43,451 nucleotides of DNA, from assembly GCA_964543965.1 (NCBI GenBank), contig CAZJAX010000002.1:1-43451 (forward strand), read 5' to 3'. The notes under the pieces were generated by a model. The model was given only the letters and a program-made list of their open reading frames with translations. It did no database searches and had not been told where the DNA came from. The stretch comes from an uncultured Planctomycetia bacterium (GTDB taxonomy: Bacteria > Omnitrophota > Gorgyraeia > 2-02-FULL-51-18). A program made the position numbers and the translations under genes. Below are positions 4,654-38,514 of the stretch, in pieces (position 1 is the stretch's first letter; each line of letters opens with the position of its first letter).

Positions 4654-4669
4654 TAAGGAAAGAATAAAC

Positions 4670-5677: not shown

Positions 5678-5728
5678 TTCCTGGAAAATTTGTAGAATAG
5701 ACTTAAACCTGTAGGTCGGGGGACGGGT

Positions 5729-7614: not shown

Positions 7615-7630
7615 CGGCGGCAGTCCTCGT

Positions 7631-17500: not shown

Positions 17501-20500
17501 TCCTGCTTTTGAAGAGAATCAAGGCCGAGGTGCCCGCAAACGCCGCGTTCAGCGAATTTCTCTCAGAGCTCGACAAAGCGATCACGATGACGAGCGGCGC
17601 GCGTCTGAGCGCCGGCACCGATGATCCTTTGAAAGGCGCCGTCATTATCCGCTATGCCGACAGTTACAACACGCCGGGCGGCGTCAGCACGTATCTGCGG
17701 GATCTCAACCAGGGTATTTTGAGCGCACACGACGTGACTATCTACCAATTTCATCCGATCACCGGTAAGGAACTTATCAAGAAAACCTATGGAGAGATCG
17801 AGACTATCGGCAAGGGACGCATTATCCACATGCCGATCGACATGGGCGCTGTATTAACCGCGCCGTCAGACGCTGAGGCTCCCGTGGCGGCTGCGGGGGG
17901 CGTCCGGTCAAAGATCGGGTATTTCGTCCGCAACTTCGTGAATAAGAATCTGAAGGATTTCCTGCGTTATCTTTTATTCCTTCCTGAAATGCTTCCGATC
18001 ACGAAGCGGCTTCCCGTCGTCGGAGAGCGCGCAAGGAAGATCCTTCGTACCCGCGAAGCCTTTTCGGCCGGCCTCGATACGCTGCGAGCGTCCATAGCCG
18101 GAAAAAAAGTCCTTTTCATCAACCATAGCCCTGAAAATCCGCTTTCGCTTTCGCTGGGCAGGGAAGTGCAGCGCCGGAGTATCCCGGCGGCCTATCAGCT
18201 CCACGGCGGACCCGAGTTTTCAGACCGTCAGATCCTGAAGGTCCTTTCGAGGACTTCAAAACCTTCGGGCGTGACGCTGAGAAACCTGCGCTCCGCGATG
18301 GGGTATCGGGCTGAGAATCTGGCAGACGGCATCGACACTGATTTTTTTGATCCGGCGGCCTCCGCTTCGGAAAAGGGATCCTTCAGGCGGTCGCGCGGTC
18401 TCGATCCGGCCGCACCCCTGATCCTGCTGCCTTCGCGAATCACGCGAAACAAAGGCCACGATGTGCTGGAAAAAGCTTTTTTCGAGATCATGCGGCAGGC
18501 AAGGGATACCGGAAGACCTCTGCCTATACTGGTTTTTGCCGGAGACTCTGACGGTGAATTCGCTCCTGAGCTTAAACGCTTTGCCGAAGATCGCGGGATC
18601 GCGGATAGGGTAGTTTTCACCGGCAACCTTGCCGCAGACGAGCTGCGGAGGGCCTATCTTGACGCGGATGTGATGGTGCTGCCGAGCAAAGGCGAGGGTC
18701 TGCCGCGCGTGATCCTCGAGGCGCAGTCCATGCAGGTTCCCGTTGTGGCGACGGACGCCGGCGGTTCGCGTGAGGGTCTCGTGAACGGCCGTACCGGCTA
18801 TCTGGTGAGGATCGGTGATGCGGACAGCATGGCCAGACGGATCGCGGAGCTTTTGAACGACCCCGCAAAACGAGGCGAATTCGGCCGCGCCGGACGCCGT
18901 TATGTCTCCGAGAATTATTCTTTGAATACGCTGGTCGATAGGCATGCCGCATTTTATTTGAGATCCATGGGCGACGGTTCGCGCCTGGCCGCCAGCGTCA
19001 GCGAACAGCGTTTGCCGGCGGATCTGCCCAAGGATGCATTTATTTTGGTTCCGGTTTTCAACGAAGAGAAACGTTTGTCCAGGATCATCCAGAAGGCCCG
19101 CGAAGGAGGTTATCTCGACCGTGTAATTTTTGTCAACGACGCTTCATCGGACCGGAGCCTGGAGTATATAAAAAGCGTTCCCGACGCATTTTATGTGAGC
19201 TTCTCATCGAATCAGCAAAAAGAAGGCGCGCTTGCGGCTTCCCTGGATCACTTGGAGGCGGAGTATGTCCGCCGGTCGGTGCCGTTCCCGGCCTATTTTG
19301 CCGCCGTCGATGGAGATACGTATCTGGAGCCTACGTCGGGAGATTCTTCTGTGATCCGTGAACTTATGCTGGCCGCGGCTCAAATGAGGACCGAAGACCT
19401 CAAGGCCATGAGCTTCCGCATACGAGCGGATCTAGACACGTCTTCGACAGCCATGCAGTGGGTGCAGGCAGTTGATTGGGCGATTTCCGGCGGCAGGAGT
19501 ATTCCGGGCGGCGGCACGATCTACGACGCCGCTGTATTTAGAGAAAGCATCAAAGCCTCCAAAAAGGGATTTTTCTCACGTCCGATCGAACTTAAACGAT
19601 GGTTTAAGGAGAACGGGTACAAGATCGGGCGCGCATTCCAGGGGTTAACGGCAAAGACCGAAGTTGAGACGACGCTGAAAAGGTTTATCCGGGAGAGAGG
19701 CAAGTGGGCCTACGGATTTCAAGAGTGGTATGGCAGAGCCGTATTCGCGGCGATCGTTCTCGCGGTCGACCTTATCTTCGGGTTCATCTTGTTTCACGAC
19801 GGGATCTTTAGCGGTTCGGCAGCAGGGACCATCCTGCTTTCTGCGGTGTTGACGGGAGCGTCTCTGAGTCTTTGGAAAATATGGCGGGGAATAAAAGCAT
19901 TATTTTATTTGACCGGATGGTTTGGCAGGCCCAGCTCGCCTAAAGCTGGGCGTATGGACATCCTGCTTCTTTTCCTTCCGCTCACCTTCGCCACTTTGCT
20001 GGTCTACACGCTTTATTCCCACAGAGCGCTCTTTCTTGATTATTACACCTCTCCGCCGAAGAGGCCGGACACGGACGAGTCTGACGCAGAAGGCGCGCGT
20101 CTTGCGGGGGGCAGCGCTGCCGAGCAGCGGCGCTATCGTGCGCTCTTCCGGCAGGTCATGAATCTCTTGGACATGACGGACCGTGCGGACGTCAAATTGA
20201 AATTCAACGCCGTGAAGCGTCTCCGGCAGCTTCAGGCTGCGGGACGGCGCCGGCGGCTGGACGGCCGCATCGCGGCGCCCATCGAGCTCATTATCGGACA
20301 TCTTAAGAACGGCCATATCTGGCCATCGCGCCAGATTTCCGTCGCCTATTTCCTCCTTCGTGTTTCCCGAGAGGATTTCGGCCGCTCTGTCCGCATGCTT
20401 TTGGGCGTCATCCGATATGACGAACAGATGCACCAAGATCCGAGCCGTGGCGCCGTCAGAGACATCGCCGCGGAACTTCTGAAGAAGATCGCTCTCGATT

Positions 20501-22794
20501 CGGCCAACCAGCGGAATCAGAATAAATATAAGACCATTCTCTCGATCCTGGATGAAGAGCTTGCTGTGTCGAGCGGAACATCCGAGCATGGACGCAGGCT
20601 GACGAATATAGCCTCGATCATCCGCTCTTACGATAAGTCCGGCGCACGTCTGGCGGCCGGCCGCAGTTATATTTCCGGGGGTAAAAACGTGGACCCCGCA
20701 TCGGCGGAAACGGACGCGCATGATGATTTTTTCAGAACAAGCGCGCTGGATCCCTCGGGCACGTTTTCAAAAAGGATACGGGTCGAGCCGCTTACGCCGG
20801 GAGGATCCGACCGGCAGGATCCGCAGATCCCCGGCGGGAACGCGGCGAAATTCGTAAGCGGGCTTCCTGCGCGCTCGCGGGACGCTCTGAGAAAGATCTT
20901 AAGCCGCGCGGCGCGGTCCTCCGGCGACCTTCCTGTTCTTCGGATCTTGCCGGACGAAAGCGGGACGCTGGCGCTGGATCTCGAGCTCTATGACCGGACG
21001 CCTTTCGAAAATTTTGAAGGTGGTTTTGAGACCGAAAAGCGGGGCATCTACTTGGGCGGCGGCTATATCCGCATCGAAAGATTCAGCAGCGCCAGACACT
21101 TGATCCGGATACGTTTTCCGAAAGCTCCGGTCATCCGGATGGCTGGCTGGACTTCCTGGAAGGATATCGAAAAGGCAAGCGACCGGTGGAAGGGCGAGGA
21201 TGCCGGCAGCGCCAGCGGCCTCACTGCGGAGCATCTGATGTATGCTTTCGATTTCGGGAATCCGGACCGCGTCATCCGGGAAACCGCCCCTGATTTTTCC
21301 CCTAAAAGCGCCGCGGTGATCGGCGCCTACAAAAATTCCGCGGATATCCTGCGCCTGCTGAAAACGTTCCCGTCGCTCGAAGAGATCCATCTTCTGGATA
21401 TCGACGGCTATTCGAAAGCGTTCTTTGAGCTTGAGGAGGACCTTGAGCGGCTCAGACGCGAGGAAGCGGCCGTATTCCCGAAGATCTACGGCTATCGCGG
21501 GACGATCGTCGAAGCGCCGTCCAAGCTTTCCGGCAAGATCGATCTGGTCTACGATAAGTATGTCTTTGCCGACTCCTATTTTTCGCGCAGCCAGCTTTTG
21601 CAGAGCGGGCGGGAGATCCAGCGGCTTCTGCGGGACGGCGGCGTCCATATTTCCGGGGGCAATGCTCACCGTTTCACGGAGGATCTTTATGCCGGATCGC
21701 GGATGAAGATGCTGGCCGATGAGGGCGATTACACGGTCTATTTCAAGCGGCAGACGAAAGAAGAAAAGGACGCGGGCGCCCGTCTTGCGGATCAAGGACG
21801 CCTTACCGAAGCGGAGAAGCAGGATCTCAAGCTCTATCTAGCCGCGATCTCAAAGGAGAACGCCGCGCCTGTGGAAGCAGGAAAACATTTCGCGGTACAG
21901 TTTGGCGCCGGCGTTTTTGAATTTCGCCCTTCGCGCGGGGCGGGCGGATCGCTGGATGTGTACCTGGCCGGCCGATCCGGCGCGGAACCTGTCGTCAGTC
22001 TGACGGCGGATGATATCAGCCGGCTGCTCGAGCTCCGCAGGACAAACCCAGGTTCATTGAAACAGGATCTCGTGCAGGGCGCGATGACGGCTATCAAGCT
22101 GCATGACCAGGCCGTGCTTGCAGCTTCCGCTGTCGAAGATCTTAACGCCGGCTATCCGGTGAACATCGCGTTTCCTATGAGCATCTTCAGCGACCTTGAG
22201 GGCGATGAGCTCGACGCGCAGATCCGCTTCCAATTTCTGAGGCTGCAGGAATTTCATAAAACGAAGTACGGCCGCAGCACGACATTTTATCTGTACGGCG
22301 CGCCGGAACACCGTGTTCTCGAGGCCGTGCAGCAAAACATCGAGCCGTTCTCGGGCTTCATCCGCCTAGGGCGCCCCGAGCACGCAGTCGTTTACGTCGA
22401 CACGGATGAGAATGCGCTGCCGGCGCTGGCCGCCTCTCAGCTTTCGCTGCCGACAGGAAAGATCCCGAAGAAGGGCGTGGGCAACCTATGGGCGCTGGCG
22501 GCGCAGGGCCTGCGCGGATGGCACGACGCTTCCGCGGGCGGCATATTCGCGGCCGATACGCTCGTCCCCGGCGACATCAAGAGCTCGTCGCTCAACAGTT
22601 ACAACACGCTGGCCATCGCCAGCGTCGATGCAGCCGGATATGCGGCGATCGCGGGCCACAAAGAAAGCGCAGGCGAAAGCGTGCTCGGGCGAATGAAAAA
22701 ACATTTACTCCGGGGCTACATCCCGATGCCGGTGGACATCGACGCATCGATGGTCATCGCAGCGCTGATACGTATGAGCGAACGCTCCGCCTGA
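11542..22794 (+). CDS. Giant multidomain protein (3750 aa): N-terminal anchor, TraB/GumN-like module, unknown module, HD-GYP, kinase-like(?) module, GT4, GT2 with TM helices, helical module, Rossmann MTase-like module, C-terminal module
   Basis: Uninterrupted 11,253-nt ORF. The TTG start lies 6 nt after GAGGT. Domain motifs are listed in the sub-features. The first ~540 aa are paralogous to ORF 25356..31457. Confidence 0.9.
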   Translation: MGKYCPFLKVISIVLVIAFMTQDAAISAPEVMRVAERYAERRPDIEWARRLLPAIPESVAAIEDAWNGGGRRTVLLVQDAHTNNSAQLNEAALLDILYSQTEDLSRRLYLEAGSGDESISFFRSYAEAEKRRRVARNFLLQAKLQGVEYLDLTSGHDFVLYGVEDMTLYERSVELYRAISGKREKLKNYLDRVENTAEALKPRLLNPFLLAFDRTRLKYARQEISTTEYFGLLAAQAKRIGLPFEYPHLKTLNKLREAEQRIDFRKASEEEHRALLSLRDEDRLQAQELLKAPSKHGQRNDTAFFHLLKDKIADLPLYPNLSLYLDYLKEAESLNSKEILKEQRSLEEAIAKALTVHADETALMKAVEHVQALKQLLYLKFTPDDYESYKKNRGASGIRGLTGFLNRKIMDGKEHYDKTLFLEEGYDEAVRECESFYELTRERDRAFLANMTAADDGKPLRVLVAGGYHTSNLKELLKKQGTSYISLMPQVFSETNMERYEEILLGQKSVFGKTSIPAAGSANMTRRQTLTPAGAARLAEALDLSEAQTREVLASAAAKGSGENLPAPGARLAAPGEIPQKKAEAAASRPEIIRRSEDRLRAALLQKGSLDLFVGELDAALRSKLHRFAFHAQIDKLVSDNLNTQPSLATALHWKIEALKQEIQERRFEAVKGIMYRDIIQFYEGDKWGIGDVWNRMRTLDQGRITLDYNMLSKQRYGMQLREPGDLSDEDWEGAIEKILSDRSDGSVLIQSLRGVTGRDWLAAADIAAPIHVMRVQEGLFQGVFLVLAPLGDGSFVPFILMLAKNTKEKSGIVAEEFRRLAPFSSKEGIVHVMRSGSVPVKAAADSGQLAFYTSRFLDHHDEVILIFSKEKPDDLSRVKVRFNSNFFWRGYDFEKDERVNELAGMISLFVYFSEPQNGTMIDGFSIGAGDANHNELYEPGSALPERKHPHTLIAYRGSVPTDIPGFISELFGLRYLDTYFEDWSSADPATKQILYRKRESDWVPSFIIDAVLEALKRGLIRKYGETDGPLIARQWLEHYLNQIRRRPELEPVTVSPRTHVLTSPKKPIFTRARIERFIREELTPGARLASDAEIYGRMLAFDARIVPLQQKADLLERRIESEEGSAHAFLPDGHPLIKQLRDVRADLAAAHLELKAEIQAYIKEPAADAADPDAAGDRNERAAVYDVFVGFQERTYESQRRIWTINRRLAQFARKMGVSTPHFTRLEKAADPHWTMDHILRVTMRAILVAHEYGLRGKELKELALGAMIHDLGKTKTSKYLLNAVPAEMPEGGYDEIRKHVMTGGVLFREAYLYFEYLKRRTEILAAVQRRVSGWIYRLWDRLESVAGWDIYTGIKGSLPLTVGPINKVLWDIGDISRLIEIPELEDILKALRTDSSLYRRVSQIILEHHETLNATGYPDRIKNENPISHIVQLADIHDAARSPRPYKRTRPKSWEEISDISAQFSRSSGVLFLPAAVDAWKRVAWDKSVIGARLSDERADEKNDWSGWKGVEFLRLKQELAGSLSERDRALLKDILTSEYGMNADKLADLIKREPGKVYIKSDEIDPTWGEGRKVYLELDAESQRNLGKKVLALKGVRPQYDETGEALPYDDFISLGLDRRPLVIRDGMLAVGTPVIAPKGGMAEKRAELEYDEMETAAVEAGFGTETAMALGYFSGKNFRGQRLAFVISALDGTDERLAIAPGRSRNGEDPVRVLHASNMKDGNGTRFSLPTSLEFMKAIGKALRAYHFRENQSRASGSPVRRFHRYPHFGNLEIVRDADLNVIRVNIHDLDTTLRSEDLGAADADPEFLETGHRIIDLLMIIYLLNMESSMVPSSESSAELTSAFLEGYFYDSEIKSARFQTMLAALQNPLLHRMVDMLKTKHFGINTDLFGPLGEHHPLLGGLWRELSELRGREDRSISAARLAVDRDALSAQFSVLDNQIDRSKRLLVSSDDGGLKFVDTTRGRLDYAKNLLRDGDVYDLLLLLKRIKAEVPANAAFSEFLSELDKAITMTSGARLSAGTDDPLKGAVIIRYADSYNTPGGVSTYLRDLNQGILSAHDVTIYQFHPITGKELIKKTYGEIETIGKGRIIHMPIDMGAVLTAPSDAEAPVAAAGGVRSKIGYFVRNFVNKNLKDFLRYLLFLPEMLPITKRLPVVGERARKILRTREAFSAGLDTLRASIAGKKVLFINHSPENPLSLSLGREVQRRSIPAAYQLHGGPEFSDRQILKVLSRTSKPSGVTLRNLRSAMGYRAENLADGIDTDFFDPAASASEKGSFRRSRGLDPAAPLILLPSRITRNKGHDVLEKAFFEIMRQARDTGRPLPILVFAGDSDGEFAPELKRFAEDRGIADRVVFTGNLAADELRRAYLDADVMVLPSKGEGLPRVILEAQSMQVPVVATDAGGSREGLVNGRTGYLVRIGDADSMARRIAELLNDPAKRGEFGRAGRRYVSENYSLNTLVDRHAAFYLRSMGDGSRLAASVSEQRLPADLPKDAFILVPVFNEEKRLSRIIQKAREGGYLDRVIFVNDASSDRSLEYIKSVPDAFYVSFSSNQQKEGALAASLDHLEAEYVRRSVPFPAYFAAVDGDTYLEPTSGDSSVIRELMLAAAQMRTEDLKAMSFRIRADLDTSSTAMQWVQAVDWAISGGRSIPGGGTIYDAAVFRESIKASKKGFFSRPIELKRWFKENGYKIGRAFQGLTAKTEVETTLKRFIRERGKWAYGFQEWYGRAVFAAIVLAVDLIFGFILFHDGIFSGSAAGTILLSAVLTGASLSLWKIWRGIKALFYLTGWFGRPSSPKAGRMDILLLFLPLTFATLLVYTLYSHRALFLDYYTSPPKRPDTDESDAEGARLAGGSAAEQRRYRALFRQVMNLLDMTDRADVKLKFNAVKRLRQLQAAGRRRRLDGRIAAPIELIIGHLKNGHIWPSRQISVAYFLLRVSREDFGRSVRMLLGVIRYDEQMHQDPSRGAVRDIAAELLKKIALDSANQRNQNKYKTILSILDEELAVSSGTSEHGRRLTNIASIIRSYDKSGARLAAGRSYISGGKNVDPASAETDAHDDFFRTSALDPSGTFSKRIRVEPLTPGGSDRQDPQIPGGNAAKFVSGLPARSRDALRKILSRAARSSGDLPVLRILPDESGTLALDLELYDRTPFENFEGGFETEKRGIYLGGGYIRIERFSSARHLIRIRFPKAPVIRMAGWTSWKDIEKASDRWKGEDAGSASGLTAEHLMYAFDFGNPDRVIRETAPDFSPKSAAVIGAYKNSADILRLLKTFPSLEEIHLLDIDGYSKAFFELEEDLERLRREEAAVFPKIYGYRGTIVEAPSKLSGKIDLVYDKYVFADSYFSRSQLLQSGREIQRLLRDGGVHISGGNAHRFTEDLYAGSRMKMLADEGDYTVYFKRQTKEEKDAGARLADQGRLTEAEKQDLKLYLAAISKENAAPVEAGKHFAVQFGAGVFEFRPSRGAGGSLDVYLAGRSGAEPVVSLTADDISRLLELRRTNPGSLKQDLVQGAMTAIKLHDQAVLAASAVEDLNAGYPVNIAFPMSIFSDLEGDELDAQIRFQFLRLQEFHKTKYGRSTTFYLYGAPEHRVLEAVQQNIEPFSGFIRLGRPEHAVVYVDTDENALPALAASQLSLPTGKIPKKGVGNLWALAAQGLRGWHDASAGGIFAADTLVPGDIKSSSLNSYNTLAIASVDAAGYAAIAGHKESAGESVLGRMKKHLLRGYIPMPVDIDASMVIAALIRMSERSA
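11749..13041 (+). other. N-terminal module of giant ORF 1, TraB/GumN/Tiki-superfamily-like with a large helical insertion
   Basis: TVLLVQDAHTN (aa 73-83), YLEAGSGDE (aa 109-117) and RERDRAFLANM...LRVLVAGGYHTSNLKELLKKQGTSY (aa 441-484). The last block resembles the ERNxxW....VAVGAGHLxG..G....L...GY block of TraB/GumN. Confidence 0.4.
15214..15951 (+). other. HD-GYP domain (c-di-GMP phosphodiesterase family) inside giant ORF 1
   Basis: MIHDLGKTKTS (H1271 D1272), IRKHVMTG, ILEHHETLNATGYPDRI (G1418 Y1419 P1420) and IVQLADIHDA. Confidence 0.8.
17632..18957 (+). other. GT4-type (GT-B fold) glycosyltransferase domain inside giant ORF 1
   Basis: LLPSRITRNKGHDVL and VLPSKGEGLPRVILEAQSMQVPVVATDAGGSREGLVNGRTGYLV carry the E-x7-E region of retaining GT4 enzymes. 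Confidence 0.8.
19036..20040 (+). other. GT2 domain of processive-synthase type followed by 3-4 TM helices, inside giant ORF 1
   Basis: FILVPVFNEEKRL, VIFVNDASSDRS, AAVDGDTY (DxD) and RERGKWAYG (resembles Q/RxxRW). These are followed by the hydrophobic helices AVFAAIVLAVDLIFGFILF, AAGTILLSAVLTGASLSLW and MDILLLFLPLTFATLLVYTLY. Confidence 0.65.
21310..21665 (+). other. Rossmann-fold, class I methyltransferase-like module inside giant ORF 1
   Basis: AAVIGAYKNS (degenerate motif I), EIHLLDIDG (motif II acidic), KIDLVYDKYVF and QRLLRDGGVHISG match the methyltransferase order, but motif I is atypical. Confidence 0.35.
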
Positions 22795-22847: not shown

Positions 22848-24674
22848 ATGAAAAAGCTGCGCCCGGCTCTCCTTTTGCTGATGTGTTTTTTGTCGTGGGT
22901 TCTGCCCTCCGGCGCGGAAACCGGCAAGATCGGCCATGAAAGCGAGCCCATCGCCTGGCGCGCATGGTCAGATGACCTTTTTGAAACGGCCGCTAAAGAA
23001 AATAAGCTGGTCCTCCTCGATCTCGAAGCGGTCTGGTGCCACTGGTGCCACGTCATGGCTGATACCACGTACCGCGATCCCAGGGTCGTCGAGCTCATCA
23101 ACTCCAGATTTATCCCTGTTCGCGTCGATCAGGATGCCAACCCGGACATCTCGGTCCGCTACGAGCGGTGGGGATGGCCGGCGACGATTCTTTTTTCCGC
23201 CGACGGCACCGAGCTCGTAAAGCGCCGCGGCTACATTCCCCCCGAGGCTATGGCAGGCCTGCTTGAGGCCGTGATCAAAGACCCGACGCCGGGTCCCTCG
23301 GTGCTGCCCGAAGCGGAAGAGGCTCCGTCCGAAAACTCATCGCTTGCGCCTGAGCAGAAAAAAGCGCTGGAAGAAGAACAGGTGTCGTTTTATGACAAAG
23401 AGTTCGGAAGCTGGGGGATGAAGCTGAAGCTCATCGACCCCAACTATCTGGAATGGGCGATCATGCGGTCGCTCGACGGCGACGCGGCGCAAAGCGCGAT
23501 GGCGCGCCAGACGCTCGACCAGGCGCTCAACCTGCTCGACCCGGTGTGGGGAGGATTTTACCAGTATTCAGAAGACCGCGACTGGAAGGGTCCTCACTAT
23601 GAAAAGATCATGCCGATCCAGGCTCCGCATATCCGTCTTTACTCGCTGGGTTATCTCGTTTTTCAAGACCCGAAATATCTTGAGGCGGCGCGCAAGACGG
23701 CTGAATACGTCGAAAATTTCTGGACCGACCCCGAGGGCGGTTTTTACACGAGCCAGGACGCCGACGTCGACGTGCAGATGAAGGGTAAAGAGTTCTATTC
23801 GAAGGACGATTCGGCCCGCCGCGCGCTCGGAAAGATGCCGCGCATCGACAAGAATATTTACGCGCGCGAGAACGGCTGGATGATCTCGGCCTTGTCCGCT
23901 TTGTATGATGCGTCCGGTGAAGAAAAATATCTCGAGGCGGCCAAGAGATCGGCTGAATGGGTCCTGAAGAACCGCGCGCTCGGAGGCGGAGGGTTCCGCC
24001 ATGATGCGGAGGACCGCGCAGGTCCGTATCTCGGCGACACGCTGGCAATGGGGCAGGCGTTCATCGATCTTTACCGTTCGGACGCGGATCGGAAATGGAT
24101 CGCTCATGCGGAAGATGCGGCGCGCTTCATCGAAACAAATTTCAAGGACGCCGAAAACGCAGGCTATATCAACGCGGTGGTCCCGCCCGGCGCGAAAGGC
24201 GTTTTTGCCAAGCCTGTCAAACAGGTTGATGAAAACGCCGCGGCCGCGCGTTTCGCGAACCTGCTGTATCACAATACCGGCAAGACCGAATACCGCGCGA
24301 TCCACGAGCGCGCGATGAAATATCTCGCCTCGCCGACAGTGCTCGCGCGAGTCCATTTTCTGTGCGGTGTGCTCATCGCCGACAGCGAGATCGCCTCGGA
24401 TCCGGTGCATGCGGCCGTCATCGGCTCCAAATCCGACCGAGCGGCCAAGGCGCTTTACAGAGAAGCGCTCGCATACCCGTCCGGCTACAAGCGCGTGGAG
24501 TGGTGGGACCGGTCGGAAGGACCTCTGCCGAATCCGGACGTCGAGTATCCGGAATTCGAGAAGCCGGCCGCCTTTTTATGCGCAGACAAGGCTTGCTCGA
24601 CCCCTATTTTTTCACCGGAAAAATTCAAGCAGACGATCGCCCAAAGAATCCAGGAGGCGGCTCGATCCTCATGA
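22848..24674 (+). CDS. Secreted DUF255/YyaL-like protein: thioredoxin-fold domain plus (alpha/alpha)6-barrel (N-acylglucosamine 2-epimerase-like) domain
   Basis: Signal peptide, then KLVLLDLEAVWCHWCHVMADTTYRDPRVVELINSRFIPVRVDQDANPDI, the signature of thioredoxin_7/DUF255. The long C-terminal helical-repeat region contains GGF...D motifs. Confidence 0.75.
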   Translation: MKKLRPALLLLMCFLSWVLPSGAETGKIGHESEPIAWRAWSDDLFETAAKENKLVLLDLEAVWCHWCHVMADTTYRDPRVVELINSRFIPVRVDQDANPDISVRYERWGWPATILFSADGTELVKRRGYIPPEAMAGLLEAVIKDPTPGPSVLPEAEEAPSENSSLAPEQKKALEEEQVSFYDKEFGSWGMKLKLIDPNYLEWAIMRSLDGDAAQSAMARQTLDQALNLLDPVWGGFYQYSEDRDWKGPHYEKIMPIQAPHIRLYSLGYLVFQDPKYLEAARKTAEYVENFWTDPEGGFYTSQDADVDVQMKGKEFYSKDDSARRALGKMPRIDKNIYARENGWMISALSALYDASGEEKYLEAAKRSAEWVLKNRALGGGGFRHDAEDRAGPYLGDTLAMGQAFIDLYRSDADRKWIAHAEDAARFIETNFKDAENAGYINAVVPPGAKGVFAKPVKQVDENAAAARFANLLYHNTGKTEYRAIHERAMKYLASPTVLARVHFLCGVLIADSEIASDPVHAAVIGSKSDRAAKALYREALAYPSGYKRVEWWDRSEGPLPNPDVEYPEFEKPAAFLCADKACSTPIFSPEKFKQTIAQRIQEAARSS

Positions 24675-25355: not shown

Positions 25356-28300
25356 TTGGTAAAGCTGTCCCGATTTATTAAAGTCATATCCATAGTCTTA
25401 GTCATAGCCTTTTCGGCGCAGGACGCCGCTTTGGCGGCGCCGGAAATACTTGACCTTGGCGCATCATCTAAAAATGAAGTCCGCGCTCATCTCAAATGGG
25501 CTCAAAGGACGCTTCCGCCGATCCCGGCTTCCGCAGCATCCATTGATGATGCGTGGGACGCCGGCGGCGGCGAAGTGGTCCTGCTTATCCAGGACGCCCA
25601 CACCAATGAATCGGCGCAGCTTAACGAGGCTGCCCTGCTGGACGCGCTTTATGCGCGCGCAGGAGATCTATCTTCTTACGTCTATCTCGAGGCGGGAAGC
25701 GGGGACGAGTCGCTGTCGTTCCTGCGCCGTTATGCGCCGCAGGATGTGCGCCGACGCGTTGCTAAAAGCTTTCTTCTGCAGGCCAAGCTGCAGGGTACCG
25801 AATATCTGGATCTTACATCGGAATACCCGATGACGCTGTACGGCGTCGAAGACATGCAGCTTTACGCGCAGTCCGTCGCGCTCTACCGGCTCGCTGCGGC
25901 CGAAAGGCAAAAGTTTCTGCTGCATCTTGACCGGATACAGTCGACCGTCGAAGCGCTTAAACCGGACTGCCTGAACCCCATCCTTCTTTCATTCGACCGC
26001 GTTTATCAGAAACGGCAAAAAGGCGAGATCCCGCTTACGGAATATTTTCGGACGCTCGCACGTTATGCCGAGACGCTGCAGATCGCTTCTGAATACCCAC
26101 ATCTTAAACTCTTAAGAAAACTGAATGAGCTTGAAGAAAAGATCGACTTCGATAAAGCGGCGGAGGAAGAGGCGAAAGCGCTTTCATCTTTGAGCGAGGA
26201 AGAACAAGGCGAAGCGCGCCGCGCGATCAGCGAGCCGTCGCGTCTGAACGGCAAGCACCAAAGCGCATTCTTTGCGTATCTGGATGCGCGCATAAAAGAT
26301 AAAAAAGCCTACCCCATGCTGGCGCGCTATCTCGAATATTTGAGGAGCGCGGACGAGCTCAATTCCAGAGAGCTTCTCGCCGAGCAGACGCGGCTCGAAA
26401 ACGATATCTTCGGGGCGCTTACGGCCGGAGCTGACGAGGCTGCGATGCTGAAGGCCGGCCGCAGCGCAGACGCGCTTAAAAAGCTGCTGGCGCTGCAATG
26501 CTCGCCTGAGGAATATGAAGCTTACCGAAAAGACAAAGCGGACTTCGATGTGCGGGCGATCACCGGATTTTTAAACAAGAAGATCATGGACGCGGGTGAC
26601 CGCTACGACAAGGCACTTTTTCTGGAAGACGGCTATGAGGAGGCTGTGCGGCGCTGCGAGCAGTTTTACGAGCTTACGTATGCCCGCGACGAGGCGTTTC
26701 TTAAGAATATGGAGCGCGCCGGCGACGGAAAGCCGATGAAAGTCCTTGTGGCGGGCGGGTATCATGCCCCGAACCTCAAATATCTTTTAAGGAAAAAGAA
26801 TATTTCCTACATCTCCATAGCGCCTCGGGTGCTGCAGGAAACAAACCTCAGGCGTTATGAGGATATTCTGCTGGGCCGCAGCCAGCCAGGTCAGGCCGGA
26901 TTCGGGGCGCTCGCGCGTCATTCAGGAAATATGACGACAAGAACGTTTTTCAACGGAGGCCTTCCGGAGCTGGCGGCGGCTCTGGATCTGACCGAGTCTC
27001 AGACCACGGCGGCTTATGAGATCGCGGCGTCCAGGCTCGCTAATGTACGCACGGCCGGGGCGCAACCTGCAGCCGCGCGGATGGCCTCAGCGCAGAGTCC
27101 CGCTGTTTACCTTAAAAGCCGCATCCACATGAGATCCGCCTATCACATCCTGAGCGAGACGGAAATGCTGGAGAAGCTCGAGGATCTCAAAGTGTTCTTC
27201 AGGCATATCGCGCCTTCGGGGGCGCTTGAGTCAGAGCGGCACGAAATGGGCATCCTGAACTTGACGCTGCAGTCTCCCAGACTCCAAGCGGGAGCAGGGC
27301 TCGTGATCGTCGCTGAAAGCTCGACCATTCCCGAGCCGGTTCTGAATCGAATCGCCGGGTACGTCGCAGCGGTCCTCGATGCCTATGTTGACTTCAACGC
27401 TTCGGGCGCTCCCGAGGAGTCCTCGCAGATCCGTCTGGACGAGCTGCGGGTGTCATTTTTTGGGGATTTGGACGCGCTGGGTTTTGACATCGATCCGGCC
27501 GCGGGCGCGCGTCTGGCTCAAAACGATACCTCTGTTTTTCGGCGGAGAGTCTCCGGCAATATTCTGAAAGCGGGGATGCAGAACGGCGTGTTTAGCGTGA
27601 GCCTTGCGGATCTTTCTGCCTACCTGAAGGGTTCCGTCGACGGCCAGCGGTATGAAGTCCATTACGCGAACGCTTTCGCGCTTCTAAAAGATCTTGTGCC
27701 GGATCTGTCGCGCATGGGCGTGCGCCGCATCTATCTGAACGGCATGCTTTATCCGGTCAGCGAAATCTCGAAACTCATTCATACGGTTCCGCACGCCGGA
27801 GAACATTTTTTCAAGAGCGGCCGAGCGACGATTCGCGTGCACAATTATGCCACGAGCCGCACGGATATCACGCTGCCCTCGGGAGGCACGCTCGTGCTGA
27901 CGGACCGTGAAGGAAACTCCTTTTCGCCTCCGACGATGATGCGCTTCAATCCCCTCCACTCGGCAGATCCTGCTTCGGTGAGGGTCTCGGGCCTCGACCC
28001 TCAGCGCACGGAAAGTCCGGATCTCGACCGAGAGTTTGAAGAGCTCGTCAAGGCCGCGGCGGCGGCAGGGGTAGGTATCGATTTTACCGTCGATTTCATT
28101 CCCTGGTTCTCCTCAGACTCTGTGGATGAAACGAATTATAAACGGTTCTTCTACCGAGAGCTTCCCGAGCACCTGAACAGACAGTACCGCGAAACAAGCG
28201 GGGACGGCCGCAGCCTCTGGGTACAGAACCTGGTCCGCATCTCCCCGGGCTGGTTCGCTGTGGAGCTGCCGGAAGAAGGAAGCGACGACAAAGAAAAGAC

Positions 28301-31300
28301 GACGCGCGTCATTCTCGTCAAACACCTTGAGGGCACCAACGTCGATCAGGCGATCCCCAATCCGTACCACCCGGATAACAGAGCCTATTACCGCAAAGTG
28401 TTCACGCGATTTTTTAAAATGGGCGTCTACAGCTTCCGCGTTGATCTGGGGCATCTGCTTCTGAAAAAGAATACCCGAGGCTATTTCCAGGAAGTCGGCT
28501 GGCTCAACGGGCAGACGGGCGAGACGCTGGAGGCTTGGATCGGCCGGTCCGGGATGAAATATGACGCGGCGTCCAATCCTGACGGGATCAAGGACGGTGA
28601 AAGTTTCGACTCCTGGTGGAGCCGTCAAAAGGATATTTGGGACGAGACGCTGGGCATCATCCACAGGGGGACCGCGCAGACGCCGGAACTCGTTTTCGAA
28701 ACCTATTTGGACTCGGATCAAAACGAGATCCTCGCGATCACTCCGGCCGCCGTCTATTATAAAGGACTTTTTTCACGCATCACGGCCTTCCTCGCACAAA
28801 ATAAGGACGACTCCTCAGCCCAGTCGTTCCGCGAGATCATCGATTTCATGGTGGAGATGGGTCCGTTCTTATGGGGATTCCTGAGTAATTTTGACCAGAA
28901 CGCTATCGTAAATTTTCTCAAGAAGTTCGGCTGGGACGAAAAAACGCTGCACTCCTTTTTGGCTATGGCCGTCGCGGCGCAAAGCATCGGAGCCGTCATT
29001 ATGATCGACGAACCCGAGTGGTACGGTCTTTCGGGACGGCTGCTAAAGACCGCCGGCGGCAATAACCCTGCCGATTTTGAGAGCTTTCATCCCTTCATCG
29101 CGGCCGGGCGGCGCAGGGAACTGCAGGATCGCCTGGCTTTCGTGCAGGCTGATGACGGAGTGCCGCGCATCGGCGATAAACGCATGCTCACACAGAGTCC
29201 GATGGCTCAGGTGCTCGCCCAGTTCCCCAGCGGGTTCTTGGAATCCGAGATCATCGATTATAAATACCTCGACAATTCCTTCGATAAACGCTTCCTCACG
29301 TTTGCGTTCGAGACCAAAGAGCACGACTGGTACGTCGTCGCGATCGATATGAAGCCGAAGAGCAAGCGCGAATCTTCGCCGGCCAAAGAAAAAAATCTGC
29401 TTCAGGTCAAGCTGCCCGTGTCCGCTTTTCCATTGTCTGTCCCCGCGGAAGCGCTCGACTCGCAATTGAACCGCATTCCCGGAGCCGAAAATTTTGCAAC
29501 GGCTTGGGTCGGCGCAAACTCCTCCGACAGCTATCTCGTCGGCCTGAGCTACAACTGGGAGACGGGTCACTGGAGCGAAGGCGATCCAGGCCTGCCCGTA
29601 CGCGTGATAAAGATAGGCGCCGTGATCCCCAAAACGCGCGCTCCGGCCCCGGAAGAGGGCGATCTGCACGCCAGATCACTCGAAGCTTTGACAAAGTTCC
29701 GCACTCACCAGCTCTATAATTTTTTAGCGCGTGAAATAGCGGATCCCAACAGAAACGAAGAGAACCAGTCCGAAAAAAGGAAAGCGCTTCTTGCGTCCAT
29801 GCTGTATCCGGATTACTGGGTCCGCGGGTACGCCGCCAATACAGCCGCCTTCCGAGTGCGGCGCGAAGGCGCAAGACCCCAAGTCTACTTTTCTCCGGAG
29901 CTGCTGGACAGGCATTCCCGCGATCCCCTGATCTCTATCGGGCATTACGACGGATGGAATCCTGTGCAGAAATACGGCATGGCGTTCGGCGAGCTGGAGA
30001 AGCGCCATGCCCGGCGCAATAAAAGGTACGCCATCATCTGGACGATCTCGCATCTGGTCACGGAATGGTCTTCGGACGCCGAACGCATCCGTTTCCGCCG
30101 CGCTTTCCGCAACAAGCTATCCAGGCTTCTTGAGTCGCAGGCCGATGCCTGGACTCCGGAAAGGGACTTGGAGCTTCACCGCATCGCCGATGAGGGATTT
30201 GACCGCTACATGATAGGCGACCCGTCCCCGCTTAATCTGCTGGAACTCATGCGCCTAGTCCGCTTAAGAAGTTTCCGTGAAGAGAAGCTCAAAGCGGCCA
30301 ATTCCAAATACGAAGACCCCAAGGCTTGGGTCATCCGCGAGGTGAACTTTATTCTCGATGCGCAAACCGACCTGCGCCTCCGCCAGATCGTAGACAAGCC
30401 CGAGGCGTCCGCCGCGCGCCTGGCTTTTTCGTCTGAGCCGCTTGAATTCCGCAGCGCCAGGCCCCGGCGTCTCGGAATGGCGGCGTTTCTGCTCGGCGTG
30501 TATGACGGCCAAAAGAGCCGGGTCGATCGTCCCGGCAGCCGTATCGCGCTGGGCGAGGCTGTTTTTCATCTCGAGGCCCGATCCGAGCCGAAGAGGACGC
30601 GGCTGATCCTTCGTCACGGAAACAAAATTGTATACTCGATCGGAAATGTATCGAGAGCCGCCGAGATCATGAACCGGCTCTCTGCCTCCCGGATCAAGAC
30701 TTTGAAGCGCAGCGGGATGGCGTCGCTCCTCAAGGCGGCCCGGGCGAATCTGGCGGAGCTGCTGCCTCCCGCCGATCACGCCGAGGCGCTCGGCGCTGTC
30801 GAGATCGATCTTTCCCAGTTGGCGGAAAGTCTCCTGGCTGCCCGTGTTCCGCCTGAAGAGGCGCTAGAAGCCGTCAATATGCTGCTGTCCCAGGCGGCTC
30901 GACAGAGAGGCAGGTTTTTCATCAGCCATACGGACGAGGCTTATTTCAAGCAGTGGAAAGGTTTTTCGATCGATGAAGCTGTCGCGCGCGCCCGCCTCAA
31001 GAACGCTCTTATCACAACGATCCGGCCCCAGGGCCTGGCGATCGCAAAACTTCACTTCGATACGGGTGCTGAGCAGATCTCAGTCTCTCTCGGGCGGGGG
31101 GAGGTGGCGGCGCACGTGTCGGGTTTTATGAACGGCCAAGTTCCGGATTTTGCGGCGGATCTGCGTATCGCCCAGGAAGCGGCTGAGTTTTATGGAAAAC
31201 ATCTCGAAGACGGAGAGATATCCAGCGATACCGCCGCGATCGTGGCCGATCTGGAGAGATCAGCGCTTTTAAAAGCGCTCCGGTCTTTATCTGTCGACGG

Positions 31301-31457
31301 CAAGACGCTGAAAGCGGCCGCGGCTCATGAGCTGATGAGGAGCCGTCTGATGGACCGTCAGCAGCTGCGCCTCATCCTCATACGTCCGCTGCTGCAATTC
31401 TTGAGCGACCGCATGTCGGCTCTGCGTTACATGAAGCAGGCGGAGGCAGCCGCTTAA
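25356..31457 (+). CDS. Giant multidomain protein (2033 aa): N-terminal anchor, TraB/GumN-like module, small unknown module, ~965-aa module with GH13-like TIM barrel, C-terminal module
   Basis: Uninterrupted 6,102-nt ORF with a TTG start after AAGGGTGA. Its N-terminal ~540 aa align residue for residue with giant ORF 1 (KVISIVLVIAF, LL[VI]QDAHTN, YLEAGSGDES, EYPHLK, VLVAGGYH). Confidence 0.9.
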   Translation: MVKLSRFIKVISIVLVIAFSAQDAALAAPEILDLGASSKNEVRAHLKWAQRTLPPIPASAASIDDAWDAGGGEVVLLIQDAHTNESAQLNEAALLDALYARAGDLSSYVYLEAGSGDESLSFLRRYAPQDVRRRVAKSFLLQAKLQGTEYLDLTSEYPMTLYGVEDMQLYAQSVALYRLAAAERQKFLLHLDRIQSTVEALKPDCLNPILLSFDRVYQKRQKGEIPLTEYFRTLARYAETLQIASEYPHLKLLRKLNELEEKIDFDKAAEEEAKALSSLSEEEQGEARRAISEPSRLNGKHQSAFFAYLDARIKDKKAYPMLARYLEYLRSADELNSRELLAEQTRLENDIFGALTAGADEAAMLKAGRSADALKKLLALQCSPEEYEAYRKDKADFDVRAITGFLNKKIMDAGDRYDKALFLEDGYEEAVRRCEQFYELTYARDEAFLKNMERAGDGKPMKVLVAGGYHAPNLKYLLRKKNISYISIAPRVLQETNLRRYEDILLGRSQPGQAGFGALARHSGNMTTRTFFNGGLPELAAALDLTESQTTAAYEIAASRLANVRTAGAQPAAARMASAQSPAVYLKSRIHMRSAYHILSETEMLEKLEDLKVFFRHIAPSGALESERHEMGILNLTLQSPRLQAGAGLVIVAESSTIPEPVLNRIAGYVAAVLDAYVDFNASGAPEESSQIRLDELRVSFFGDLDALGFDIDPAAGARLAQNDTSVFRRRVSGNILKAGMQNGVFSVSLADLSAYLKGSVDGQRYEVHYANAFALLKDLVPDLSRMGVRRIYLNGMLYPVSEISKLIHTVPHAGEHFFKSGRATIRVHNYATSRTDITLPSGGTLVLTDREGNSFSPPTMMRFNPLHSADPASVRVSGLDPQRTESPDLDREFEELVKAAAAAGVGIDFTVDFIPWFSSDSVDETNYKRFFYRELPEHLNRQYRETSGDGRSLWVQNLVRISPGWFAVELPEEGSDDKEKTTRVILVKHLEGTNVDQAIPNPYHPDNRAYYRKVFTRFFKMGVYSFRVDLGHLLLKKNTRGYFQEVGWLNGQTGETLEAWIGRSGMKYDAASNPDGIKDGESFDSWWSRQKDIWDETLGIIHRGTAQTPELVFETYLDSDQNEILAITPAAVYYKGLFSRITAFLAQNKDDSSAQSFREIIDFMVEMGPFLWGFLSNFDQNAIVNFLKKFGWDEKTLHSFLAMAVAAQSIGAVIMIDEPEWYGLSGRLLKTAGGNNPADFESFHPFIAAGRRRELQDRLAFVQADDGVPRIGDKRMLTQSPMAQVLAQFPSGFLESEIIDYKYLDNSFDKRFLTFAFETKEHDWYVVAIDMKPKSKRESSPAKEKNLLQVKLPVSAFPLSVPAEALDSQLNRIPGAENFATAWVGANSSDSYLVGLSYNWETGHWSEGDPGLPVRVIKIGAVIPKTRAPAPEEGDLHARSLEALTKFRTHQLYNFLAREIADPNRNEENQSEKRKALLASMLYPDYWVRGYAANTAAFRVRREGARPQVYFSPELLDRHSRDPLISIGHYDGWNPVQKYGMAFGELEKRHARRNKRYAIIWTISHLVTEWSSDAERIRFRRAFRNKLSRLLESQADAWTPERDLELHRIADEGFDRYMIGDPSPLNLLELMRLVRLRSFREEKLKAANSKYEDPKAWVIREVNFILDAQTDLRLRQIVDKPEASAARLAFSSEPLEFRSARPRRLGMAAFLLGVYDGQKSRVDRPGSRIALGEAVFHLEARSEPKRTRLILRHGNKIVYSIGNVSRAAEIMNRLSASRIKTLKRSGMASLLKAARANLAELLPPADHAEALGAVEIDLSQLAESLLAARVPPEEALEAVNMLLSQAARQRGRFFISHTDEAYFKQWKGFSIDEAVARARLKNALITTIRPQGLAIAKLHFDTGAEQISVSLGRGEVAAHVSGFMNGQVPDFAADLRIAQEAAEFYGKHLEDGEISSDTAAIVADLERSALLKALRSLSVDGKTLKAAAAHELMRSRLMDRQQLRLILIRPLLQFLSDRMSALRYMKQAEAAA
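25563..26870 (+). other. N-terminal TraB/GumN/Tiki-like module of giant ORF 2
   Basis: VVLLIQDAHTNESAQLNEAALLD, YLEAGSGDESLSF and ARDEAFLKNM...MKVLVAGGYHAPNLKYLLRKKNISY. Confidence 0.4.
27700..28910 (+). other. Possible GH13-like (alpha-amylase superfamily) TIM-barrel region in giant ORF 2
   Basis: GVRRIYLNGMLYPV (beta2-like), GVYSFRVDLGHLL (resembles region II GFRxDxxxH), LVFETYLD (region III Glu) and GFLSNFDQNA (resembles region IV FxxNHD). Region I is not convincing. Confidence 0.35.
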
Positions 31458-37272: not shown

Positions 37273-38514
37273 ATGAACATCAGAAACCAGAAGGGTTTTG
37301 TCTTGATCACGGTGGTCTTGCTCTCTTCCGTGCTGTTCGCGGGAGCGCTGACCTATATGGATCTGGTGATCGTCGAACACCGCACGCTTCGAGCGTCGCA
37401 GAATATGCTGATGGCTCAGGCCGTTTCCGAGGCGGGCGTCGAAGATGTGGCGTGGGAATATAATTACAACGCTGGGACTTTTTCTTCCGCTAACGGATGG
37501 GCCACCAACGGTACGACACGGACAAAAAACGGCACCGTGACCAACGGCGCCTCGGCGGTGGGCACTTACGCCGTTACCGTAACCAATGCCACCAGCAGCA
37601 CGCCGACCATCGTATCGGTCGGCACCGCTTCCGCGACCGGCGGTTCTAACAGCATCACGACGCGTGCGATGGTGGCGCCCCAGTCCGAGTTTCTCAACGC
37701 GATCACGACCAACGGTGCCGTCACGCTGTCGGGCAACGCCTACACGGACAGCTACAATTCAAGCAACGGAGCTTACGGCGGCTCAAACCGCCTGACCAAC
37801 GGCGATGTCCAGACTAATGCCCATTCGAACGGCGCCATCGCACTTTCAGGCAATGCCAACATCCGCGGCGACGCCGGAACCGGTTCCGGCGGCACGATTA
37901 CATTGACGGGAAATGCATATTACACCGGAAGCCCTTCGAGCAGCGTCGCCAATACGATCAGTGCCAACACAGTTCCATCCTCTCTGACATCGCTGACCTC
38001 GGCCGGCGCGTATAGTTTGAGCGGAAATTCAACCGCAACGCTAAATTCGGGCTCTTACCGATACAGCTCCATGAGCACGTCTGGAAACGCTGTGCTGACG
38101 ATCTCAGGCGACGTATCTCTCTATCTTGATGCCACTAGCTCTGCTTTCAGCAACTCGGGTAACGCCCGCATCTCCATCAGCTCAGGCTCATCGCTGACGA
38201 TTTACGTCAACGGCAGCGTATCAGTCTCGGGTAACGGCCTAGTGAACAACAATGGCACTTCGAGTCCGATGACATTCCAGCTTTACGGGACATCGACAGC
38301 TACTTCACTAGCGATCACCGGCAACGGCAGCACGACCGGCATCATCGATATGCCCTCCGCGCACGTCGCTGTCAGCGGCAACGGTGATATCTACGGCTCC
38401 GTCATCGCTAATACGTTCTCCGCCAGTGGCAACGGCGGCTTCCATTATGACGAAAATCTTGCGTCGAGCGGTCCGTCAAACGGTTATAAGCTCCGGTGGG
38501 CGCGGCGCGTCTGA
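37273..38514 (+). CDS. PilX-N-like protein with Ser/Gly/Asn/Thr-rich beta-helix-type repeats
   Basis: QKGFVLITVVLLSSVLF N-terminus (PilX_N style). This is followed by at least 9 copies of an [LTV]-[ST]-G-N-[AGS] motif, for example LSGNAYTDS, LSGNANIRGD, LTGNAYYTG, TSGNAVLTISGDVSLY and VSGNGDIYGSVIAN. Confidence 0.65.
   Translation: MNIRNQKGFVLITVVLLSSVLFAGALTYMDLVIVEHRTLRASQNMLMAQAVSEAGVEDVAWEYNYNAGTFSSANGWATNGTTRTKNGTVTNGASAVGTYAVTVTNATSSTPTIVSVGTASATGGSNSITTRAMVAPQSEFLNAITTNGAVTLSGNAYTDSYNSSNGAYGGSNRLTNGDVQTNAHSNGAIALSGNANIRGDAGTGSGGTITLTGNAYYTGSPSSSVANTISANTVPSSLTSLTSAGAYSLSGNSTATLNSGSYRYSSMSTSGNAVLTISGDVSLYLDATSSAFSNSGNARISISSGSSLTIYVNGSVSVSGNGLVNNNGTSSPMTFQLYGTSTATSLAITGNGSTTGIIDMPSAHVAVSGNGDIYGSVIANTFSASGNGGFHYDENLASSGPSNGYKLRWARRV

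Follow-up and report, generated by a model that had tools for sequence, protein, structure and literature searches.

A five-residue motif marks the seams between complete modules in a family of long proteins found mostly in Omnitrophota

Two giant open reading frames and their motifs

We analyzed a 43,451-nucleotide (nt) stretch of DNA, which we call the window, from an uncultured bacterium that is labelled as Planctomycetia in GenBank and placed in the Omnitrophota by GTDB (assembly GCA_964543965.1, contig CAZJAX010000002.1, positions 1 to 43,451). The window contains two giant open reading frames (ORF1 and ORF2), which encode proteins of 3750 and 2033 amino acids (aa). Both proteins have a signal-peptide-like N-terminus, a constant head of ~500 aa, a string of modules that varies from protein to protein, and a tail that is again constant. 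The modules are separated by copies of a pentapeptide of the form [GA][AS]R[LM][AS], or the motif. The features are listed below, with coordinates in the window; + indicates the forward strand.

25356-31457 (+): ORF2, 2033 aa, beginning with TTG; the signal-like N-terminus is followed by the head, three modules of cargo or tail, and four motifs in all
25356-25439 (+): signal-peptide-like segment of ORF2, aa 1-28; basic n-region, ~12-aa h-region, then 'QDAALAAPE'; predicted helix at 2-27
25440-26945 (+): head domain of ORF2, aa ~29-530; common to ORF1 and at least 8,700 protein clusters
27027-27041 (+): ASRLA in ORF2, aa 558, first of the pair behind the head; in frame; near the end of a predicted helix, with predicted local distance difference test (pLDDT) scores in the 80s
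27072-27086 (+): AARMA in ORF2, aa 573, second of the pair behind the head; in a segment with pLDDT <50
27087-27503 (+): module N1 of ORF2, 139 aa; no detectable homologs
27504-27518 (+): GARLA in ORF2, aa 717; the equivalent boundary in the related protein P0148 is GARLA at aa 546
27519-30410 (+): module N2 of ORF2, 964 aa (aa 722-1685); its first ~620 aa are a divergent GH13-like (beta/alpha)8 domain
30411-30425 (+): AARLA in ORF2, aa 1686; matched at this boundary in P0148 by AARLA at aa 1428
30426-31454 (+): module N3 of ORF2, 343 aa, a family tail module; ends in the conserved C-terminal peptide '...SDRMSALRYMKQAEAAA'
11542-22794 (+): ORF1, 3750 aa; the same head, nine cargo or tail modules (HD, GT4 and membrane GT2 among them), and ten motifs
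13144-13158 (+): AARLA in ORF1, aa 535; kept as ASRMA in the orthologous locus L001
13246-13260 (+): GARLA in ORF1, aa 569; the L001 head ORF has a candidate counterpart, GSRLA at aa 558
14797-14811 (+): GARLA in ORF1, aa 1086, ahead of the HD module
16018-16032 (+): GARLS in ORF1, aa 1493, behind the HD module
17314-17328 (+): AARLA in ORF1, aa 1925
17596-17610 (+): GARLS in ORF1, aa 2019, ahead of the GT4 module
18976-18990 (+): GSRLA in ORF1, aa 2479, between the GT4 and GT2 modules
20092-20106 (+): GARLA in ORF1, aa 2851
20641-20655 (+): GARLA in ORF1, aa 3034
21775-21789 (+): GARLA in ORF1, aa 3412, ahead of the tail module

ORF2 corresponds to the database protein P0011 and ORF1 to P0009. 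Relative to the TTG starts at 25356 and 11542, the public gene calls begin 25 and 19 codons later, respectively, so a conserved hydrophobic N-terminal segment is left out of them.

An earlier note on this DNA had listed the four pentapeptides in ORF2, and all four are in frame and exactly where it placed them. We compared the number of motifs in each ORF to 2000 shuffles that preserved its composition. ORF2 has 4 copies, as compared to 0.15 expected and a maximum of 2 in any shuffle; ORF1 has 10 copies, as compared to 0.24 expected and a maximum of 3. These are ~25-40-fold enrichments, and chance does not account for them. When we searched all six frames of the window with a stricter pattern ([GA][AS]R[LM]A), there was just one match outside of the frames of the giant ORFs (off-frame, at 28490).

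The earlier note had also proposed that the two proteins share a head and carry different cargo. In a pairwise alignment, ORF1 and ORF2 are 52% identical over their first ~600 aa and have no significant similarity past that, as proposed. A more specific claim, that the first motif lies at the same place in both proteins, needs correcting in detail. Both proteins do have motifs just past the shared head, but GARLA at aa 569 of ORF1 is nearest in the alignment to AARMA at aa 573 of ORF2, not to ASRLA at aa 558. Many relatives have two copies of the motif, 15-40 aa apart, directly after the head.

The motif marks seams between complete modules

We searched 1.8 billion representative proteins with a profile of the head and found 8,705 representatives, 4,759 of which had E < 1e-30. 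Among the best 150 of these 8,705 members, the head is always N-terminal, and the proteins are up to 7,011 aa long. (A word-indexed search found only 8 relatives of the head. One of these is comprised of the head, AARLA, GARLA, and a Ser/Thr kinase.) We also scanned one genome per species and found 69 related loci. Nearly all of these are from metagenome-assembled genomes (MAGs) of Candidatus Omnitrophota, and some are from MAGs that are coarsely labelled as Planctomycetia. A genome can have up to five paralogs, often in tandem. Judging from their sequences, ORF1 and ORF2 are members of a very large family whose proteins are long and consist of a head, cargo and a tail, almost all of it from Omnitrophota.

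For the statistics of the motif across the family, we considered the 124 members of at least 1,000 aa among the matches listed. In these proteins, G[AS]R[LM][AS] occurs 590 times, as compared to 5.9 expected (~100-fold), and 109 of the 124 have at least one strict copy. As the earlier note had anticipated, the junction motif is a property of the family and not just of the window. The first copy is at a median position of aa 606, directly after the head, and the median spacing between copies is 287 aa. A single protein can have up to ~18 seams. We also counted cargo pentapeptides without specifying any pattern. GARLA was the most common (129 copies, in 44 of 59 locus-derived proteins, as compared to 0.5 expected), followed by pentapeptides that overlap it, and then by GARLS, AARLA, GARMA and GSRLA. 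The Arg is essentially invariant and the tolerated swaps are conservative (G/A, A/S, L/M, and A/S/G). The positions flanking the five residues carry little information. Just ~8 residues on each side of a site are linker-like in their composition. The motif is maintained although the heads share only 30-50% identity. The cargo is wholly different among members (kinase, DnaJ, HAD, PGI, sigma-70, HTH, aldose epimerase and histidine phosphatase modules all occur), so the modular family that the earlier note had envisioned, with a constant head, variable cargo and a common junction, holds up.

If the motif marks boundaries, then it should lie between domains, and several kinds of comparison agree that it does. 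The earlier note had named two outcomes that would refute it, motifs that miss the domain linkers and a lack of junction motifs in other members, and neither was what we saw. In ORF1, the Pfam envelopes of HD (1237-1451), GT4 (~2045-2453) and GT2 (from 2501) each lie between consecutive sites, and neither in ORF1 nor in its relatives does a motif fall inside any reported Pfam best-stretch envelope. In ORF2, N2 is 35% identical to residues 554-1392 of P0148, a stretch with GARLA at 546 on one side and AARLA at 1428 on the other. N2 also starts within a few residues of the start of P0156, a free-standing homolog, whose Met1 aligns inside the GARLA motif at aa 717. Modules M1 and M3 of ORF1 recur in P0034 and P0052 at other positions, and are between motifs there too. 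Across the family, we compared 570 cargo homology blocks of at least 150 aa to random placement. Just 15% of blocks contain a motif (44 ± 2% at random), while 51% start within 60 aa after a motif (18% at random) and 30% end within 60 aa before one (17% at random).

Some of the bracketed modules are small or are complete proteins. For example, the relative L057 has a 63-aa J-domain (1586-1649) between sites at 1579 and 1655, with a HAD domain beginning at 1659, and it has a full-length PGI (2456-2945; 736 bits; profile positions 1-486 of 486) between sites at 2397 and 2954. Similarly, in P0029, a sigma-70 factor lies between sites at 1576 and 2018 and an XRE-type HTH lies between sites at 2244 and 2415. 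More broadly, L057 (494-9493), P0029, and P0001 with its neighbor contain proteins of the housekeeping type as modules: PGI, J-domain, HAD, sigma-70 regions 2 and 3, XRE HTH, and Ser/Thr kinase. The 6,417-aa gene that adjoins P0001 encodes PGM/PMM, ROK, FHA and GT5 domains.

The seams of L057 also suggest that the modules retain native ends. The seam before the J-domain reads 'GAR-MAERTHYQVLGL', which reproduces what we take to be the native start of DnaJ from E. coli ('MAKQDYYEILGV'). The ends of the PGI module align with what are presumably the native termini of E. coli PGI, no more than ~2 residues from the motifs. In this relative, the one that we inspected residue by residue, the order at a seam appears to be the native C-terminus, then G-A-R, and then [LM]-A in place of a Met-Ala start.

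A comparison to the orthologous locus L001, which is ~63% identical to ORF1, shows modules coming and going at the motif. The alignments break at ORF1 residues 1086-1092, ~1500, 2853, 3039 and ~3386-3412. Modules M3-M6 and M8 of ORF1 are missing or replaced in L001, while the motif persists, with A/S and L/M swaps. Overall, these analyses show that the pentapeptide G/A-A/S-R-L/M-A/S marks the seams between complete, shuffleable proteins, at every boundary, within a fixed architecture of signal-peptide-like N-terminus, ~500-aa head, variable modules, and tail.

The motif is also found at the very end of the chain. Among the 124 large members, 95 end with AA or SA. The last ~30 residues are conserved ('..LPP....hhQGAR[LM]A.(R/K)..(G/E)(Q/R)[AS]A') and include a copy of R[LM][AS] or GAR[LM]A that lies 7-11 residues from the C-terminus, with the Arg most often at 11 or 7. 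The ends of ORF2 ('...SDRMSALRYMKQAEAAA'; '...RYMKQAEAAA') and ORF1 ('...ALIRMSERSA') match this pattern; the tail peptides are encoded at 31365-31454 and 22702-22791, respectively. Homologs of module N3 of ORF2 form the extreme C-termini of P0059, P0010, P0030, P0028, P0052 and P0088. A motif ~10 aa from the C-terminus cannot serve as a linker.

The N-terminus, the head, the N2 module and the neighboring genes

The N-terminal segments of ORF2 (25356-25439) and ORF1 (11542-11625) are built like Sec signal peptides, with an A-x-A-like c-region. Across 105 members, the net charge is +2.9 before the h-region of ~12 aa and -1.1 after it. The h-region is followed by a stretch resembling 'Q(Q/D/E)..A.A(A)P', and the segment as a whole is unusually well conserved across the family. 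We considered whether the motif might itself be a site for signal peptidase I (A-x-A) and rejected the idea: it would leave the invariant Arg and the Gly unexplained, and the internal sites do not have an h-region.

The head contains the sequence motifs QDAHTN, EAGxGD, GVE and GGxH. In 105 heads, 15 polar residues never vary (D80, H82, N84, E112, E165, Y170, E260, Y328, N407, Y438, R444, D445, H470, T496 and Y501), which suggests that the head might be an enzyme. Searches of Pfam, NCBIfam and PDB sequences with the head found no match. A structural model of the head from AlphaFold2 (AF2; mean pLDDT 77.7) has an alpha/beta core (61-165 and 461-490) that is interrupted by a helical insert of ~290 aa. 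Foldseek comparisons of this model to PDB and BFVD found nothing significant, because the long helical insert dominates the matches; an AF2 model of the N-lobe alone had a pLDDT of just 54. Three independent but non-significant matches (E > 1), to EreC and HopBA1 from PDB and to a Marseillevirus TraB from BFVD, point to the EreA/ChaN/TraB superfamily.

Given 'QDAH' and 'GGYH', we suspected that the head was a protease similar to TIKI, TraB or EreA. We compared it to YbaP/TraB from E. coli with hhalign, using either a single sequence or a shallow family profile, and the probability was under 1%, so we do not make this claim. That 'QDAH' and 'GGYH' look like GxxH motifs is just a lead. The heads of P0001, P0003, P0004, P0006 and P0008 have in-frame loop insertions such as 'VIARSEATKQS...IASSPSAPRND' or 'LRGARQ..AGDVAI'. 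These resemble translated copies of a GC-rich repeat element that is tolerated within the domain.

For the N2 module of ORF2, the earlier note's suggestion of a GH13-like barrel is supported by remote homology and not by ORF2's own sequence. N2 by itself has no match in Pfam at E up to 1 (it does not reach the threshold of PF00128) and no match among PDB sequences. Its homolog P0156 is marginally above the cutoff for PF00128 (24.2 bits vs. 22). A profile built from N2, P0148, P0155 and P0156 gave 54 matches in PDB, of which 53 were GH13 enzymes (best E = 1.2e-4). This profile aligns 'GIEVVVDFIPW' and 'GVDEFRVDLGH' to regions I and II of CGTase, including the 'RVD' context of the nucleophile. 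Relative to the GH13 alpha-amylase family, the His of region I is replaced in N2 ('DFIPW'), and the matches span only short stretches. So "GH13-like" is a fair label for N2, although its region I has diverged.

Between the two giant ORFs is a gene for a 608-aa protein (22848-24674, +) with a DUF255 thioredoxin-like domain and an (alpha/alpha)6 domain similar to GH88 or GH127. The order of giant, 608-aa gene, and giant is kept in L001. Directly upstream of ORF1, which itself has GT4 and GT2 modules, is a cluster for polysaccharide biosynthesis and export (802-9091, +, and 10631-11428, -). It includes GT2, a B12-binding radical SAM enzyme, polysaccharide deacetylase, Bac_transf, a Wza-like exporter, Wzz and Wzy, followed by a GH16 glucanase. 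Further downstream, a 413-aa protein (37273-38514, +) contains DUF7305 and a putative adhesive domain of the ice-binding-like type (pAdhesive_15); it appears to be unrelated to the giant ORFs.

How the motif might be read

Selection acts on the motif at the level of the protein, because all six Arg codons are used at motif sites, as are all of the Leu codons. The flavor of the motif (G or A at position 1, L or M at position 4) is specific to each genome: none of 2000 permutations reached the observed variance between genomes at positions 1 and 4. GARMA is dominant in CAZBAY, CAYJVC and JACPWF; AARLA is dominant in CAMDWQ, JACQQX and CAZCDB, and it accounts for half of the sites in CAYSFB. Paralogs within a genome agree in flavor. 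We considered the head as a reader of the motif in cis. However, no column of the head tracks the L/M or G/A flavor, and flavor is polyphyletic with respect to head similarity, which fits a single trans-acting reader in each genome rather than the head in cis. Given the codon bias described next, homogenization of the DNA at the junctions could also account for the flavors.

Codon usage at the junctions is biased as well. In the window, the junction Arg is encoded by CGT, a minor codon, at 9 of the 14 sites, as compared to 12-18% in matched contexts and 12% elsewhere in both ORFs (examples are at 13246, 14797, 17596, 20092, 20641, 21775 and 27504). In several relatives, CGG is used instead, at 50-85% of junction sites versus 11-22% in the background, and GGC is favored for Gly too. 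For example, the junction Arg is CGG at 26 of 52 sites in CAYODQ (11% background), at 14 of 20 sites in CAZBAY, and at 7 of 9 sites in CAMDWQ. This bias could be due to pausing or to copying from junction to junction.

We think that the chances are about even that the members of this family, including ORF1 and ORF2, are polyproteins and that the motif is the site that a trans-acting endopeptidase reads. Its specificity resembles that of a protease site (small, small, Arg, hydrophobic, small, with one invariant residue), the termini of the modules look native, and the copy in the tail cannot be a linker. Also, sigma factors, HTH regulators, the J-domain, and PGI should work better once they are released. 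The endopeptidase, which would probably be one trans-acting factor per genome, would cut the precursor into its component proteins at the motif, either after the invariant Arg or after the Leu or Met. A cut after Arg would suit the invariance of that residue. A cut after Leu or Met would leave Ala, Ser or Gly at the N-terminus, as in a protein from which Met has been removed. With a cut at the tail motif, the last module would end just as the others do. More tentatively, Omnitrophota might encode much proteome-like cargo (glycolytic enzymes, sigma factors, co-chaperones, kinases and glycosyltransferases) as cellular polyproteins, in standardized, operon-like ORFs whose complete proteins are joined by a G-A-R-[LM]-A cleavage cassette. 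Paralogs would exchange modules at this cassette, and a dedicated site-specific protease would mature the chains.

The polyproteins of picornaviruses, potyviruses and flaviviruses are similar in that one ORF encodes many complete proteins that are separated by a short and uniform motif. In those viruses, the motif is specific to a protease and coevolves with it. In contrast, the genes that we describe lie on a cellular chromosome, among exopolysaccharide-cluster, Pst/PhoU and two-component genes; we did not find a protease module in them; and a genome may encode several paralogous chains.

Several observations weigh against the polyprotein interpretation. We did not find a peptidase domain in ORF1 or ORF2 with Pfam, or in the two heads and the modules of ORF2 with NCBIfam. 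Similarly, we did not find a conserved protease gene adjoining the related loci, which are flanked by Pst, PhoU, PhoBR, and other housekeeping genes. With linkers of ~8 residues on each side, a protease may have little access to sites that lie between folded domains, and the site at aa 558 of ORF2 is predicted to be helical. In bacteria, N-terminal Leu is destabilizing by the N-end rule, so a cut after Arg would leave a destabilizing residue on most of the products. The signal-peptide-like N-terminus is at odds with the cytoplasm-type cargo of the relatives (PGI, sigma-70, DnaJ and kinases). The canonical motif is absent from about 12% of the large members, some of which have a variant in its place (for example, GTRLS, GARFA or SRMT). 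The synonymous bias at Arg, which differs from genome to genome, shows that the junctions are also shaped by a process at the DNA level, and this process alone could explain the genome-specific flavors. Finally, cleavage is an inference from these sequence patterns.

These observations raise the question of whether the chain is cut at all. The motif might instead be an uncleaved connector or docking motif, either a hinge or an element bound by a partner (the head, a chaperone, or a scaffold), in an intact multi-enzyme array. We consider this unlikely, but it would account for the failure to detect a protease in cis or nearby, the very short linkers, and the helical site at aa 558, and the tail motif lies within a conserved and apparently amphipathic C-terminal peptide that might be a binding element. 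A 2026 preprint (10.64898/2026.06.07.730766) treats such proteins as membrane-associated clusters of enzymes. On the other hand, a hinge needs neither an invariant Arg nor specificity at five residues, and a motif near the C-terminus links nothing. Sigma factors, HTH regulators and PGI, which is dimeric, would be hard to accommodate permanently in chains 3,000-7,000 aa long, and the mimicry of what are presumably native termini suggests that the modules are independent proteins. Another idea, which we think is quite improbable, is that these proteins are arrays of secreted effectors, similar to the MARTX toxins of Vibrio: the N-terminal signal would direct export, the head and tail would deliver the modules to a host or prey, and the modules would be freed there by cleavage. 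MARTX toxins also have conserved N- and C-terminal regions around variable and recombining enzymatic modules, which are released at short sites between them. Their cysteine protease domain cuts after Leu (P1) and before a small residue (P1'), which is compatible with R-L followed by A, S or G. The signal peptide looks classical and is conserved across the family, the kinase, J-domain, phosphatase and glycosyltransferase cargo resembles the repertoires of effectors, and Omnitrophota are thought to be host-dependent or predatory (PMC10066038). However, Pfam scans of ORF1 and ORF2 found neither Peptidase_C80 nor the RTX (glycine-rich) repeats of MARTX toxins, and we found no conserved genes for secretion or translocation around the related loci. 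MARTX toxins also differ in that the motif here is a strict five residues with an invariant Arg. Some of the cargo looks like housekeeping proteins, including the full PGI, sigma-70, and a membrane GT2 with its own transmembrane (TM) helices.

The remaining explanations place the signal in the nucleic acid. The motif could be mainly a DNA-level junction, the translated footprint of the recombination that shuffles the modules, with little function in the protein. The breaks in the alignment to L001 at the motif, the genome-specific bias at the junction Arg, and the genome-specific flavors all fit this idea. Nevertheless, we very much doubt it. The Arg codons include AGA and AGG, which are two positions away from CGN, and the substitutions track the similarity of the amino acids (A/S and L/M), not of the nucleotides. 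We found no nucleotide conservation in the flanks of the motif, and the motif is kept between proteins whose heads have diverged to 30-50% identity. Also, RecA-type recombination requires more than 15 nt. Alternatively, the motif could be an internal translation start or another RNA signal, with NTG at position 4 behind a GGAG-like sequence for Gly-Ala. This would be consistent with Leu or Met at position 4, with the alignment of [LM]-A to (presumably) native Met-Ala starts, and with the preference for CTG and TTG, which are 60% of the Leu codons at the sites and 39% of those in the background. But the remaining 40% at the sites consist of CTT, CTC, CTA and TTA, none of which is a start codon, and Val, which could be encoded by GTG, is nearly absent at position 4 (1 Val vs. 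129 Leu). At the Gly position, GGA is depleted (13% vs. 23%), so there is no GGAG-like Shine-Dalgarno sequence at the sites, and Arg is conserved through codon families that look non-synonymous. This codon usage places the constraint on the peptide rather than on an RNA element or a start codon, and the idea of an internal start has hardly any chance of being correct; we reject it.

Short conserved motifs at the seam between constant and swappable regions are also known from the polymorphic toxins CdiA and Rhs (VENN and PxxxxDPxGL). Those proteins have a single seam and a toxin-immunity pair; here, there are up to ~18 seams, the cargo is enzymatic and non-toxin, and we found no immunity-like gene.

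Giant proteins from Omnitrophota have been reported before (West-Roberts et al. 2023, 10.1101/2023.11.21.568195; the preprint 10.64898/2026.06.07.730766; and Seymour et al. 2023, PMC10066038). These papers describe multi-enzyme content and suspect proteolysis via C39 or S8 domains; in one of them, the cleavage points are stated not to be known, and whether the chains are cut is left open. The published classes are Archaeovorin, Dockerin-type and multi-enzyme proteins. The reported proteins are similar to those we describe in that they appear, judging from the related loci, to share a phylum, are encoded by very long ORFs that begin with a signal or TM segment, and combine many unrelated enzyme domains in one chain (GT1, kinases, and enzymes of sugar metabolism). 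They are larger: ORFs of over 20 kilobases (PMC10066038), with an emphasis on at least 10 thousand aa (10.64898/2026.06.07.730766), as compared to 2-4 thousand aa for the proteins in the window. We did not find the Dockerin, C39 or SecA-type domains of the published giants in ORF1 or ORF2. Keyword searches of these papers found no mention of a junction motif, processing at defined sites, or a shared N-terminal head, and a text search for GARLA found only surnames and unrelated papers. The motif, the head and the tail are described nowhere in the literature that we searched; the existence of long multi-enzyme proteins in Omnitrophota was already known.

Whether the giant proteins of Omnitrophota function as single chains or are cut is a recognized puzzle, and the map of the motif supplies the first concrete candidates for the positions of the cuts. 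It predicts the exact neo-termini that could be sought in metaproteomes. Regardless of how it is read, the motif provides a rule for parsing these ORFs into units for structure prediction and annotation, and the head and tail define an uncharacterized family with thousands of members. If cleavage does occur, then these proteins would be a cellular counterpart of the polyproteins of viruses, with modules that are shuffled at a standard seam. To our knowledge, this strategy of gene expression is known so far from viruses and not from cells.

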